From the NCBI GenBank assembly GCA_964472415.1, contig CAYYLC010000003.1, forward strand, positions 2,219 through 66,218: a stretch of 64,000 nt of DNA, written 5' to 3'. Source of the stretch: an uncultured Gammaproteobacteria bacterium (GTDB taxonomy: Bacteria; Patescibacteriota; Microgenomatia; Levybacterales; GWA1-39-11). The position numbers and the translations under genes are program-made. Of the stretch, positions 4,307 through 55,018 are shown one piece after another; positions within the stretch are counted from its first letter, which is position 1, and every line of letters starts with the position of its first letter. Below the pieces are notes generated by a model. The model did not search any database and was not told the origin of the DNA. It saw nothing but the letters and a program-made list of their open reading frames with translations.

Positions 4307-5824
4307 TTACCGCTGTGTTGCTCCTTGCCTATTAGCAAAACCTCTTTGCATTGCGGTAAGGTCAATGGTGTCAATTTTTCCATTTTCGTTCAAGTCTGCT
4401 CGAGTTTTTGCATCATCCGTACAAATCGCTTCATCTTTGTAGCATGCGATAAAAAGATTGTAATCTGCAAGATCGAGGATGTCATTGCTATTTCCAGTTC
4501 TGTCAATATCTCCGGAAATAAGAACTATCTGTGAGAGCTCTGTTGTGCTATTCGTTGTGATAAGTGGAAAGCCTGGGATTTCTGAGTAGAGTGTGTTATC
4601 AAGTCTCACCAGTACAAGATAATTTGCAGTAGGGAGACTTCCGAGATTAACAGTTCCTTTGTAGGTAAATGTGGTGGGATCAAACGTAAGTGTTCCTATT
4701 GCGGGGTTTTGATTTCCTGTTGCGAGATTCGTCACGTCTGTTCCGGTGGCAGATTCAACGCGCACTTCCACCTGGCGAGTAGTTCGCACGGGGTTTTCTG
4801 TATTATTCAGAGTGCCTGAGCCGGATGCTGCTGTATTTGATCCGATTCCCGGGAGTGCAAGGCTAAGAGAGATTCTTGTTCCACCGGCAGTTGTTGGCTG
4901 GCTTGTTACGGTCGGCATGGGGGTGCTGCTACTTTTTGGTTTTTGTGTTATAGAAGGAGCAGTTTTTGTTGGAATCGGGGTAGGAGTTGAGATAGGTGAT
5001 GATTGTATTGAAGTAGGTGTCGAGTTAATAGGTGGTTGTGTTGGGGTAGGAGTGGGTCTTTCCGGGCTTGTGCAGATACCATCTTCACATTTATTACTTG
5101 CACAGAGGTATGGGACGGGGATCCCTCCAAGCTTACAGGTGCATCCCCCAGGACGGTTTGCACTATTACTGCTACAGCTATTCCATCCTCCAGAAGGGGC
5201 AGTAGTGGGTGTAGGCAGTGGGTTGTCACTGAGAGTGCACAGTCCTGTTGCTGGATGGATCGAATACCTTGCGCCGCAACAGCCAAACCCTGCTGGAGGT
5301 TTTTCTCCCGCTCTCCCACATTGGTTTGTGTTTCCACCAGTGTCACCGTTATCTTTTTCTCCATTTTCTGAAGAGCCGCAAACAACTTCAGATGTGTACG
5401 ATGTGGAGGTTAGTTGTTTACCGCTTTTGTCGGTTGCTGAGACTTGAAATATATATATTGCTCCTTGCTCGAGTCCGTTTGCTGCATAGGAAGTTTGATC
5501 AATTGCTTGGATATTTATGTTTTTGATGGGATTTTGCCCTTCTTTAACATAGTGAACAGTTTGGATTGCAATAGCAGATCTTGGACTTGCTTGCGTCCAA
5601 CGTACTATGAGATTTCTGCAATTTGATCCTTCAGTGACGGATATGATTGAAGGAGGAGTAGTGATGCTTCCAGATGCAGCGCGTTGTCTCAGGTCTTGCT
5701 GTTGTTGGGTGAGTATTATGGTTATGGGAAGTGCAAGTGCGAGGATAAGTCCACCGATAACCATAGCTGTCCTTTGCCAGGAGTGGAAGAAAGCACCATC
5801 AATAAGGCTACGAATAGATCTCAT
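4307..5824 (-). CDS. secreted FN3-like, Cys-rich protein with C-terminal dockerin-like repeats
   Basis: Signal-anchor, an FN3-like segment, a Cys-rich block and a T/P-rich linker. The C-terminal GDIDRTGNSNDILDLADYNL...DLNENGKIDTIDLTAMQRGF matches duplicated dockerin Ca-binding repeats. Confidence 0.55.
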   Translation of the reverse strand: MRSIRSLIDGAFFHSWQRTAMVIGGLILALALPITIILTQQQQDLRQRAASGSITTPPSIISVTEGSNCRNLIVRWTQASPRSAIAIQTVHYVKEGQNPIKNINIQAIDQTSYAANGLEQGAIYIFQVSATDKSGKQLTSTSYTSEVVCGSSENGEKDNGDTGGNTNQCGRAGEKPPAGFGCCGARYSIHPATGLCTLSDNPLPTPTTAPSGGWNSCSSNSANRPGGCTCKLGGIPVPYLCASNKCEDGICTSPERPTPTPTQPPINSTPTSIQSSPISTPTPIPTKTAPSITQKPKSSSTPMPTVTSQPTTAGGTRISLSLALPGIGSNTAASGSGTLNNTENPVRTTRQVEVRVESATGTDVTNLATGNQNPAIGTLTFDPTTFTYKGTVNLGSLPTANYLVLVRLDNTLYSEIPGFPLITTNSTTELSQIVLISGDIDRTGNSNDILDLADYNLFIACYKDEAICTDDAKTRADLNENGKIDTIDLTAMQRGFANRQGATQR

Positions 5825-53395: not shown

Positions 53396-53845
53396 ATGGA
53401 GCGCGGATATTTTTATGGTGCAGTAGAAGAGGCAGAAAAGATTATTTCTGATGATCGGTATTTTGATCTTATAGCTCCTGATCGATCTCTTGAAGTAATT
53501 TCATATCATATACAACGACACGTAGTCCCAAATTTGTCAAGGTATGAATTTGAAGCTGAAAAGTTAGAATCATACAGCTTTTTAGCAGATTATGTGAATA
53601 CAGCTTTAGATGCTCATGATGAACGCGGTGAAAGATCTCGAGCAGTTCGAATAAAGCTTAATGCAAATCAGCTTGAAGATATTATGAGTCTTCCGATAGA
53701 CGAAAATTTAGAATTACGCTATCGGTTTGAAGTAAGAGATTCCATGAGTGATATACAGAAAGCATATGAAACGGAACTCGCAAAAAATCAGCAAAAAGAC
53801 GGGAAAATTAAAAAATTATTTAATAAAATGAGACGAAAAAAATGA
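53396..53845 (+). CDS. hypothetical protein
   Basis: ORF only. The stop overlaps the HIT gene start. Confidence 0.4.
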   Translation: MERGYFYGAVEEAEKIISDDRYFDLIAPDRSLEVISYHIQRHVVPNLSRYEFEAEKLESYSFLADYVNTALDAHDERGERSRAVRIKLNANQLEDIMSLPIDENLELRYRFEVRDSMSDIQKAYETELAKNQQKDGKIKKLFNKMRRKK

Positions 53846-54156
53846 AAAACTGTATATTTTGTAAAATAATCCGAGGCGAAATTCCTTCTACGGTGCGATA
53901 CGAAGATGAGAAGATAATTGCATTTAATGATGTGAATCCTATGAAAGACGTTCATGTATTATTTATTCCGAAAGAGCATATAGAAGTATTTGAAAAAATT
54001 TCTGATGATAGTATATTTCCCTCAATTCGAAAAGCTATTCAGCAAATTATTACAGAAGAAGAGCTAGTTGGAAAAGGGTATAAGATCGTTGCGAATGGAG
54101 GAGGGCATCAAGAAGTAGACCACCTTCATTTTCACCTCATAGGACCACAAAAATAA
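53842..54156 (+). CDS. HIT family protein
   Basis: CIFCKII N-terminus and the histidine triad HLHFHLIG. Confidence 0.8.
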   Translation: MKNCIFCKIIRGEIPSTVRYEDEKIIAFNDVNPMKDVHVLFIPKEHIEVFEKISDDSIFPSIRKAIQQIITEEELVGKGYKIVANGGGHQEVDHLHFHLIGPQK

Positions 54157-54795
54157 TATTCTGGACTTTCTTCTCATTACATTCTGATTTATGAGATTTT
54201 TTGGAATATAAAAGGTTGCCCCCGCAAAAGCTTAGAGCTCATACGGGGGCGAATAAAAAGAGAAATATTTACCAAAAGAAAAAAAATCAGAGAGCAAATC
54301 CCTGAAATAGCTTTTGGTAAAGAGTGACAATGTGTGAATGTTCTTAGTGGACACAGACTAATTTGTCTTGTTGGCCGACTTTTTATTACTCGTTCCCTCC
54401 CTGAAGTCGAGGATAAAAAGGGGCCAAAAGCTCCTGACGTGCTCCGTTTGCACGGGGAGTAGGGTCCTCCTTTGTTAGTGACGTGGAACGCCACCGAGAT
54501 AATAAATAAATGCGAACTGATGACAGTACGGTTCCCTCTTATCACATAATAAGAGATGCTCGGTCGGTGACCGAATGTGAACCATTTCACTTCTCCTTTT
54601 TAACGTGCTGACTCTTCAAGAGTCGCGATTCCCAAATACTGGAATAGAAAAATAATTATTCTATTACTCTAACTTGAGAATTCGGGTATTCTAGCATAAC
54701 TTGCAAGAGCGGTCAAGTATTATAGGTTAATTTAATAGTGTCTATTATTTACGAAGGCTCGGATATCGTTCCTTTAATTTTTTATAAATTTGCGC

Positions 54796-54801
54796 TATAA
54801 T
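54796..54801 (+). promoter_or_regulatory. candidate -10 element for rpsU
   Basis: A perfect TATAAT 37 nt upstream of the rpsU ATG. The -35 is only AT-rich (TTTAAT at a 17-nt spacer). Confidence 0.35.
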
Positions 54802-54838
54802 AGACGCATATCTTGTAGTAAGAGGGGGTGTTTTTTAT

Positions 54839-55018
54839 ATGGTATATATTAAGAAAAAACCAGGAGAGTCTCCAGACTCTATGATTCGAAAATTCAGCAG
54901 ACAGGTTATGTCTGAAGGAATAATTCTTGAAATGAAAAGAAGAGAGTTTCATCTCAAGCCTTCTCTTTCGAAAAAATATCGCAAGGAGTTAAATCGGAAG
55001 ATGAAAAATATCATCTAA
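54839..55018 (+). CDS. rpsU: 30S ribosomal protein S21 (59 aa, below ORF-track threshold)
   Basis: Manual translation gives MVYIKKKPGESPDSMIRKFSRQVMSEGIILEMKRREFHLKPSLSKKYRKELNRKMKNII*. RBS AGAGGGGGTG. Confidence 0.8.
   Translation: MVYIKKKPGESPDSMIRKFSRQVMSEGIILEMKRREFHLKPSLSKKYRKELNRKMKNII

Follow-up and report, generated by a model that had tools for sequence, protein, structure and literature searches.

A candidate minus-strand structured RNA between HIT and rpsU in a Candidatus Levyibacteriota genome

Introduction

RNAIII of Staphylococcus aureus is about 514 nt long, folds into many hairpins and encodes the 26-aa delta-haemolysin. The hok-type type I toxin mRNAs are about 400 nt long, and a 5'-3' fold-back hides their ribosome-binding site until the 3' end is processed. 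6S RNA forms a rod (about 180-200 nt) that carries a bubble at its center, and SRP RNA is marked by the GNRA loop of domain IV together with conserved internal loops. The compact genomes of the Candidate Phyla Radiation (CPR) leave little space for non-functional DNA. In the GC-IGR screens of the Breaker laboratory, orphan long GC-rich intergenic regions were left "unnamed", 427 of them in 50 genomes (PMC8632094, PMC11109978).

Here we analyze the gap between a HIT gene and rpsU in a 64-kb stretch of DNA (64,000 nt, hereafter the window), whose source genome belongs to Candidatus Levyibacteriota (Microgenomates, CPR). A preliminary description had labeled this gap an unassigned structured RNA candidate without naming a strand. 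The label is fair, because the region is non-coding, GC-enriched and significantly structured, and the signals favor the minus strand.

The element resembles the "unnamed" GC-IGRs in that it is long, GC-enriched and folded in an AT-rich genome, with three representatives at most. It differs from them in its unusually clear promoter and tandem terminators, as predicted, and in the two non-homologous analogues that occupy the same syntenic slot in relatives. Because the representatives are too few for a consensus or covariation model, the element counts as an "unnamed" candidate in GC-IGR terms. Judged from sequence alone, it is similar to dual-function RNAs of the RNAIII type in having its own promoter, an intrinsic terminator, a length of several hundred nucleotides, multiple hairpins, an internal short ORF with a Shine-Dalgarno (SD) sequence, and a narrow range; however, it has no sequence or structural homology to RNAIII and no quorum-sensing or other regulatory context. 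It is also similar to the hok mRNAs in size, in its short ORF and in a predicted long-range helix that pairs the SD region with a near-3' segment, but its 36-aa peptide is neither hydrophobic nor membrane-spanning, there is no convincing antisense RNA gene and no homology, and neither the organism nor the chromosomal housekeeping setting is typical of such an mRNA.

The explanation that we tentatively prefer, and rate at just under an even chance, is a structured RNA of about 400-470 nt, transcribed independently from the minus strand and restricted to this species, which may be dual-function through a mini-ORF and a fold-back helix. If transcribed, it would be among the very few candidate regulatory RNAs described in CPR bacteria.

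Results

The gap is present in independent assemblies and holds no credible gene

The YchF protein of the window is 64-69% identical to YchF of Levyibacteriota MAGs, and the plus-strand gene order is ychF, a gene for a 149-aa hypothetical protein, HIT, the gap, rpsU, ybeY and dnaX. The features that delimit and flank the gap are as follows.

53842-54156, plus strand: HIT gene (ORF call, Pfam label)
54839-55018, plus strand: rpsU (ORF call, Pfam label)
54189-54590, minus strand: 133-aa ORF, the only long ORF in the gap
54172..54202, plus strand: possible intrinsic terminator of the HIT operon, a weak AT-rich hairpin (UCUCAU-13 nt-AUGAGA) followed by U6 (sequence reading, inference)

The gap spans 54157-54838 (682 nt) in a genome that is AT-rich and compact, with 90.7% coding on a crude map. 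Same-species contigs were retrieved through exact matches to the rpsU and HIT proteins, and the gap sequence is 100% identical across five independently assembled contigs from ENA, Logan and JGI that derive from different samples, indicating that the gap is not an assembly artefact. Since all same-species contigs are identical, they offer no variation to exploit. The possible HIT-operon hairpin, which falls outside the minus-strand element, is missing from the terminator scan list because its stem has just 2 G-C pairs.

The preliminary description had seen no credible ORF between HIT and rpsU, and our searches bear this out. The 133-aa ORF has no Pfam or NCBIfam match and no homologue among 5.8e9 proteins. 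A HMMER search against 1.84e9 cluster representatives returned only a summed weak match to a five-fold tandem-repeat protein, which is an artefact. The compositional island that had been reported is also there, with GC of 0.47-0.56 in 100-nt windows at 54350-54550, compared with about 0.28-0.36 in the flanking spacer and 0.39 in the whole window. The two hairpins that had been singled out both exist: the coordinates given for GCCCCCG-19 nt-CGGGGGC (54218..54250) are exact, and GACTC-ttcaa-GAGTC, placed at 54609..54623, lies 1 nt further on, at 54610-54624.

Known RNA families do not match the region

At gathering thresholds, Rfam 15 finds only a tRNA-Cys (2511-2582) in the whole 64-kb window, and ARAGORN likewise reports just this tRNA-Cys and no tmRNA. 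A permissive Rfam 15 scan (E<=10) of both strands of 54000-55000 yields six chance-level matches, all to unrelated families; the best of them, rli48, reaches 23 bits against a gathering score of 100. Neither RNase P, tmRNA, 6S and SRP RNA nor any riboswitch, intron or known large ncRNA is among these permissive matches, and OLE, GOLLD, ROOL, HEARO, raiA, T-box and other Rfam 15 models have no match in the region. In the literature on CPR ncRNAs and S21 leaders, we found nothing specific to the window element.

The preliminary description had proposed RNase P RNA, tmRNA, 6S RNA or SRP RNA, and these identities are unsupported, because both Rfam (at gathering and at E<=10) and ARAGORN are negative. 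RNase P RNA was rejected since the RNaseP_bact_a/b models match neither the window at gathering nor 54000-55000 at E<=10. The P4 / CR-I and CR-V blocks (GGAAAGUCC..., ACAGAA.CCGGCUUA) are missing from both strands of 54157-54838, and the sole AAAGUCC-like string (54167-54161, minus strand) is located outside the element, beside the HIT stop codon. tmRNA was rejected on the negative ARAGORN result, the lack of any tmRNA-clan match at E<=10 and the lack of a tRNA-like domain. 6S and SRP RNA were rejected as they have no Rfam matches and the predicted minus-strand fold is multi-branched and longer than 400 nt; the SRP domain IV motif is absent by sequence reading. The preliminary description had itself failed to see RNase P or tmRNA signatures, in agreement with our reading.

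A divergent CPR-type version of one of these four universal RNAs is highly improbable in our estimate. In its favor, abundant stable RNAs typically combine a size like the one predicted here (about 400-470 nt) with a promoter of their own and tandem terminators, which are likewise predicted. Divergence is also a feature of CPR genomes, and since 17 relatives' loci scanned at gathering (about 260 kb in total) return no Rfam match at all, the housekeeping-RNA models have no positive control in this lineage. Against this reading, no model matches even at E<=10 with permissive filters, and ARAGORN and the search for P4/CR motifs, a tRNA-like domain and the SRP domain IV motif are negative as described. 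Moreover, a universal RNA should keep conserved sequence in relatives whose YbeY is 80-87% identical, yet nothing alignable is found there, and the three positional analogues are unequal in length (220, 470 and 700 nt). For a single-species orphan, the practical value of the negative result is that it removes RNase P, tmRNA, 6S and SRP RNA as explanations.

The region folds more stably than shuffled sequence

Compared with shuffles, the 682-nt region has a fold z-score of -6.0 on the minus strand and -5.2 on the plus strand, and the 481 nt between the predicted transcript ends (54205-54685) reach -7.6 on the minus strand and -5.1 on the plus strand. In sliding windows, the most extreme folding is found at 54140-54320, which spans two terminator-like hairpins. 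The 120-nt windows over these hairpins (at 54218-54320) have z-scores of -4.9 to -6.5, and the hairpins account for about half of the folding signal. The 364-nt core that remains without them gives z=-3.6/-3.3. The background, 48 same-size windows of the same sequence, has a mean of 0.0, a standard deviation of 1.1 and a minimum of -3.0, the last coming from one coding window, and the remaining intergenic gaps in the window range from +0.9 to -2.4. The core lies beyond this background by about three standard deviations, and its z-score of about -3.5 is just moderately extreme. The structure is genuine, yet less striking than the headline z-score implies. The region had been called highly structured, and this stands insofar as folding exceeds that of shuffles both for the whole region and for the core. 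The predicted fold of the minus strand is favored by 11 kcal/mol over that of the plus strand. The numbers of G-U pairs on the two strands (16 vs 17) do not discriminate between them, and folding by itself therefore leaves the strand undecided.

Predicted signals favor a minus-strand transcription unit

The features of the minus-strand unit are listed from its predicted 5' end to its predicted 3' end.

54716-54688, minus strand: predicted sigma-70-type promoter TTGACC-17 nt-TAGAAT with an extended -10 (TGc) (promoter scan, 10/12 matches plus TG)
54610..54681, minus strand: 5' domain, comprising a nested hairpin at 54681-54628 (10-bp outer stem, 7-bp inner stem) and the hairpin GACUCU-UGA-AGAGUC at 54624-54610 (fold)
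54477..54495, minus strand: hairpin GGUGGCGU-UCC-ACGUCACU (fold)
54322..54470, minus strand: GC-rich multi-hairpin domain with CUCC/CGUGC-AAACGGA-GCACG/GGAG and a long irregular hairpin UUGGCC...GGCCAA (fold; GC 0.47-0.56)
54268..54321, minus strand: extended hairpin that includes the putative proximal terminator T1, with an outer stem of 10-11 bp (54321-54311 / 54278-54268) (terminator scan, perfect 11-nt inverted repeat I5, fold)
54205..54250, minus strand: putative distal terminator T2, a hairpin GCCCCCGUA...UGCGGGGGC (54250-54218) with an inner 5-bp stem, followed by AACCUUUUAUAUU (54217-54205) (inverted repeat I3, MFE fold)

The predicted signals favor a minus-strand transcription unit. 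Promoter sites with at least 10/12 matches plus TG occur just twice on both strands of the window (128 kb), the site at 54716-54688 being one of them. Transcription is predicted to start at about 54681, and the first predicted helix begins at this expected start, with the promoter immediately upstream. The inner stem of T1 has 7 bp (UCAGGGA/UCUCUGA, 54305-54287) and is followed by U8 (54286-54279); the U-tracts of both terminator-like hairpins are present on the minus strand alone. A same-strand promoter and Rho-independent terminators, as predicted, thus bracket a non-coding segment, which is the generic mark of a stand-alone sRNA, and the unit is best filed as an orphan of this generic kind, the stand-alone bacterial sRNA-like transcription unit.

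On the preferred explanation, the unit would be transcribed from the minus strand, diverging from rpsU and converging on HIT. The extended -10 promoter would start the RNA, which may fold its 5' hairpin domain first and the closed multi-branched domain next, and which would end at T1 (about 400 nt) or at the back-up T2 (about 470 nt). The RNA may work as a free structured regulatory or protein-binding sRNA.

A predicted long-range helix encloses the SD sequence of a 36-codon mini-ORF

Two further features connect the 5' part of the predicted RNA with the segment between its terminators.

54255..54267, minus strand: 3' strand (UAUUUCUCUUUUU) of a predicted 13-bp long-range helix, which pairs with 54600-54588 (MFE and centroid of the 481-nt fold)
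54475..54598, minus strand: candidate mini-ORF, with AAGGAG (54598-54593), a 7-nt spacer, AUG (54585-54583) and 36 codons to 54475 (ORF list, sequence, fold)

The 13-bp helix closes the multi-branched domain, and its 5' strand holds the SD-like AAGGAG. Since the 3' strand sits between T1 and T2, a transcript that ends at T1 would expose the SD sequence and a read-through transcript would hide it. Judging from the predicted structure, terminator choice may thereby act as a 5'-3' fold-back switch: in the short T1 isoform the SD sequence of the mini-ORF would be exposed, and in the long T2 isoform it would be sequestered by pairing with 54267-54255. The RNA may then double as the mRNA of the 36-codon mini-ORF. 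The mini-ORF passes through a predicted three-way junction (54585-54528), and its start codon is followed by strong predicted hairpins. No Pfam or NCBIfam family matches its 36-aa product (MVHIRSPTEHLLLCDKREPYCHQFAFIYYLGGVPRH), which also lacks a transmembrane stretch and recognizable features. A hok-like type I toxin mRNA was rejected, as there is no transmembrane peptide and the sole plus-strand promoter-like site nearby (54629-54656) is weak, with 9/12 matches.

These observations bear on whether the unit is primarily a protein gene, either through a real 133-aa ORF or as an mRNA with structured UTRs for the 36-aa protein (and perhaps for a 31-aa ORF after it), which we consider improbable. 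In favor of a protein gene, the near-consensus AAGGAG stands 7 nt ahead of the AUG at 54585, and the two positional analogues in relatives (loci L086 and L090, described below) likewise have an SD-like sequence and an AUG ahead of short ORFs (13 codons and 15 codons) that are about as far from the promoter (some 90-150 nt from the predicted start in all three units). However, the three short peptides are unrelated and differ in length, and the short ORFs are buried in strong predicted hairpins. By a back-of-envelope estimate, the chance of an SD-like motif before some AUG in a region of this size is about 0.1. The 133-aa ORF begins at a GUG within the spacer between the SD sequence and the AUG and is left uncalled by gene callers on complete contigs, in addition to its lack of a homologue or family match.

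Relatives carry unrelated inserts in the same spacer

Genome and metagenome contigs of relatives were gathered through YchF, through HIT homologues and through YbeY alignment. Apart from the identical strain, the 5.8-billion-protein collection holds no HIT homologue more than 69% identical, and the YbeY proteins of the nearest relatives are 78-87% identical. The HIT-rpsU-ybeY synteny is found in about 75 related loci, where the usual spacer is 100-270 nt, and the closest relatives (L094, L095, L087, L088, L093 and L174) have a short spacer only. The preliminary description had proposed looking for conservation in related genomes, and the outcome is negative: an nhmmer search with the window region finds no homologue in 173 loci, including the approximately 75 syntenic ones. 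The nearest relatives (L094, L087, L086, L095 and L174) have none either. Lack of an Rfam match and lack of conservation were two of the three conditions under which that description would have given up its candidate, and both are observed here. Likewise, k-mer and protein searches find no homologue of the element in relatives, and a single-sequence covariance model of the SD sequence and the three-way junction (R2) has no match in the relatives' loci. Phages and plasmids, searched by blastn, and viral contigs, scanned with two exact patterns, yielded nothing. Because no homologue turned up, the fold has neither covariation behind it nor any sign of selection.

The slot itself is variable. Unrelated protein genes occupy it in L089, L115/L157, L119, L136, L137, L175 and the P0013 locus, and two other loci carry structured segments. 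In L086, a minus-strand promoter is followed by about 700 nt of near-perfect GC-rich hairpins (4340-5062, minus strand), with z=-11.8 and GC of 0.555 compared with 0.387 in the flanks; its near-perfect stems of 9-13 bp fold equally well on either strand (z=-11.8/-9.9). In L090, the promoter TTGACA-17-TAATAT is followed by about 220 nt of GC-rich structured RNA-like sequence (about 4430-4660, minus strand), and the whole 518-nt gap has z=-5.8 on the minus strand. Both resemble the window element in slot (from HIT to the rpsU promoter), orientation, sigma-70-like promoter, GC enrichment and significant folding. However, at 700 and 220 nt they differ from it (about 470 nt) in length and show no sequence, k-mer or covariance-model similarity to it. 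Smith-Waterman scores among the three units are within the range of shuffles, and their shared k-mers are not significant. Four motifs shared by the window element and L090 (GUGAAAUG, UGCAAACG, GGGAGGGA and CGUAUGAGC) differ in structural context and were taken as coincidental. Searches with nhmmer using the L086 and L090 RNAs against all loci return self matches only, and Rfam (E<=10) finds nothing relevant in the L086 gap. When a spurious 64-aa ORF of L086 served as the query for homologous RNAs, it retrieved itself alone, showing that the L086 RNA is an orphan too.

A constrained RNA stays alignable at this divergence, as seen for the rpsU leader motif R1 described below, indicating that the three units are either independent acquisitions or RNAs constrained in architecture only. 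The second possibility would make the HIT/rpsU spacer of Levyibacteria the host of a fast-evolving class of divergently transcribed structured RNAs, in which the window element, L086 and L090 share one job, such as the binding or titration of a ribosome-associated factor, or of the 30S subunit itself, by exposed SD-like sequences, and in which selection acts on architecture and homology searches are blind. We regard such a class as quite doubtful. If the window unit is transcribed, finding unrelated structured units repeatedly in a single syntenic slot would amount to a small natural experiment on how new RNA genes originate.

The variable slot also bears on the main rival of the preferred explanation, namely that the gap contains a relic without function: DNA left over or recently gained at a variable site of insertion, in which hairpins, including old terminators, persist. 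We hold this to be somewhat unlikely. It accords with the short usual spacer, with the unrelated inserts of relatives (protein genes as well as the structured segments of L086 and L090) and with the restriction of the element to one species. In addition, long GC-rich intergenic regions without relatives are common, as the "unnamed" regions illustrate (PMC11109978). On the other hand, decaying DNA in a compact AT-rich genome should drift to AT and lose structure, whereas this region is GC-enriched and folds beyond shuffles, and its predicted signals are complete and correctly ordered, a rare strong promoter followed by two terminators. None of the proteins inserted at the slot in relatives resembles the window region, and a pseudogene of a protein gene was rejected because no residual similarity to families or to those proteins is left. 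A mobile-element search (repeats, terminal inverted repeats and target-site duplication) gives short chance-level repeats only, with no second copy in the window and without the repeats or terminal inverted repeats typical of mobile elements. On the preferred explanation of a transcribed minus-strand RNA, the unit would have arisen or been inserted in the lineage of the species, at a spacer that may be a hot spot for lineage-specific insertions.

The rpsU promoter and the plus-strand reading

The region directly upstream of rpsU lies outside the element.

54773..54838, plus strand: rpsU promoter region with TTTAAT-17-TATAAT, a conserved TTTGnnnTATAAT at 54789-54801, a short 5' UTR and the SD sequence GAGGGGGUG

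The TTTG(N3)TATAAT block and the SD sequence align with the relatives L094, L095, L086, L087, L088 and L093. Because a conserved promoter of its own lies some 40 nt ahead of the rpsU start, the gap region is not needed as an rpsU leader. This weighs against a functional plus strand. On that reading, the gap would serve either as a long, structured 3' UTR of the HIT operon or as an rpsU 5' leader with control over S21 synthesis, one conceivable means being base pairing between 54534-54551 and the ribosome-binding region of rpsU (54809-54826). Several observations are consistent with such a role: folding on the plus strand is significant too (z=-5.1 to -5.2), there is no strong plus-strand terminator between HIT and rpsU, an 18-nt inverted repeat with 78% complementarity (I2) joins 54534-54551 to the rpsU SD region, and many relatives have a structured plus-strand leader ahead of rpsU. 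However, the conserved block at 54789-54801 leaves only a short leader, both terminator-like hairpins are oriented for the minus strand, and the I2 complementarity is one among seven similar chance-level pairs. Moreover, the covariance model of the relatives' rpsU leader (R1), run with filters off on the whole window, has no match in 54157-54838, and its best hit, at E=1, lies elsewhere. We consider a functional plus strand very unlikely.

The R1 leader motif of relatives

In many relatives, a conserved structured motif, R1 (about 74 nt), precedes rpsU on the sense strand. A second hairpin, abutting a strong SD sequence (AGGAGGUG), frequently comes after it, and compensatory changes are found in 11/17 consensus pairs of R1. 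Like the window element, R1 is a structured RNA in the spacer beside rpsU; unlike it, R1 is only about 74 nt long, lies on the plus strand in a cis-regulatory position and covaries across about 45 sites. With its covariation support and no Rfam counterpart, this leader motif of rpsU and ybaB is the more useful by-product of the analysis. The R1 covariance model detects 45 copies in 478 kb, including tandem copies in L111 and L122, and ten copies lie ahead of a ybaB/ebfC-like gene downstream of dnaX.

The HIT-rpsU spacer as an insertion site

The spacer between the HIT gene and rpsU, which in the window holds the candidate structured RNA unit, is a hot spot of lineage-specific insertions across the related loci L086 to L175, where its usual length is 100-270 nt. 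The genes inserted there in several relatives encode unrelated hypothetical proteins and lie on either strand:

L089: hypothetical protein of 345 aa
L115 and L157: hypothetical proteins of 390 aa and 422 aa, respectively, related to each other
L119: hypothetical protein of 209 aa
L136: hypothetical protein of 340 aa
L137: hypothetical protein of 440 aa
L175: hypothetical protein gene
P0013 locus: hypothetical protein of 453 aa

Structured units occupy the same HIT/rpsU slot as the window element at two related loci:

L086, 4340-5093, minus strand: hairpin array
L090, 4430-4689, minus strand: structured unit

The L086 array comprises about 700 nt of GC-rich hairpins with near-perfect stems of 9-13 bp, and its GC content is 0.555 vs 0.387 in its flanks. 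Its folding z (folding energy scored against shuffled sequences, with negative values more structured) is -11.8 on the minus strand and -9.9 on the plus strand. The array is preceded by a promoter (TTGATT-16-TATAAT) and terminates in a strong hairpin with a U-tract; it has no match in Rfam, and no homologue of it was found. The L090 unit, about 220 nt in size and preceded by the promoter TTGACA-17-TAATAT, contains a perfect Shine-Dalgarno sequence (AGGAGGUG) and a 15-codon ORF, and its sequence is unrelated to that of the window element.

A conserved leader motif in relatives

An RNA motif, conserved and about 74 nt long, is also present at the relatives' loci; it forms a long hairpin with irregular pairing (CCCGCC-UAAGC-UUA-CCGU-UC-GCC ... 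GGC-UCA-CGG-AGC-GCUU-GGUC-GGCGGG). About 35 loci have the motif on the sense strand upstream of rpsU, and 10 have it upstream of a ybaB/ebfC-like gene that comes after dnaX; it is often followed by a second hairpin adjoining a strong Shine-Dalgarno sequence. Examples at related loci are:

L111, 1069-1142 and 1195-1268: two copies
L171, 375-448 and 2643-2716: two copies
L138, 782-855: one copy
L122, 1213-1290 and 1343-1437: two copies

Compensatory changes are present in 11 of the 17 pairs, and a covariance model of the motif gives 45 matches at E<=0.01. The motif is without a match in Rfam and is absent from the window; it is a candidate for a new element of Microgenomates, either a cis-regulatory leader or riboswitch-like.

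The extended Shine-Dalgarno sequence of rpsU

At 54820-54838 of the window, and at the corresponding place in about 80 loci, rpsU almost invariably has in front of it an extended Shine-Dalgarno sequence, (A/G)GG(A/G)GGUG, and then a U-rich spacer, even at loci whose remaining spacer is not alignable. This arrangement in the window and its relatives recalls the rpsU of Flavobacteriia, in which the extended Shine-Dalgarno sequence reportedly serves bS21 autoregulation (PMC9976891).

Folding background of the window

Among the 48 same-size control windows that served as folding background for the core of the window element, the lowest z is -3.0, on the minus strand at 53500-53863. This stretch is coding (the gene for a 149-aa hypothetical protein), and its score is probably due to chance.
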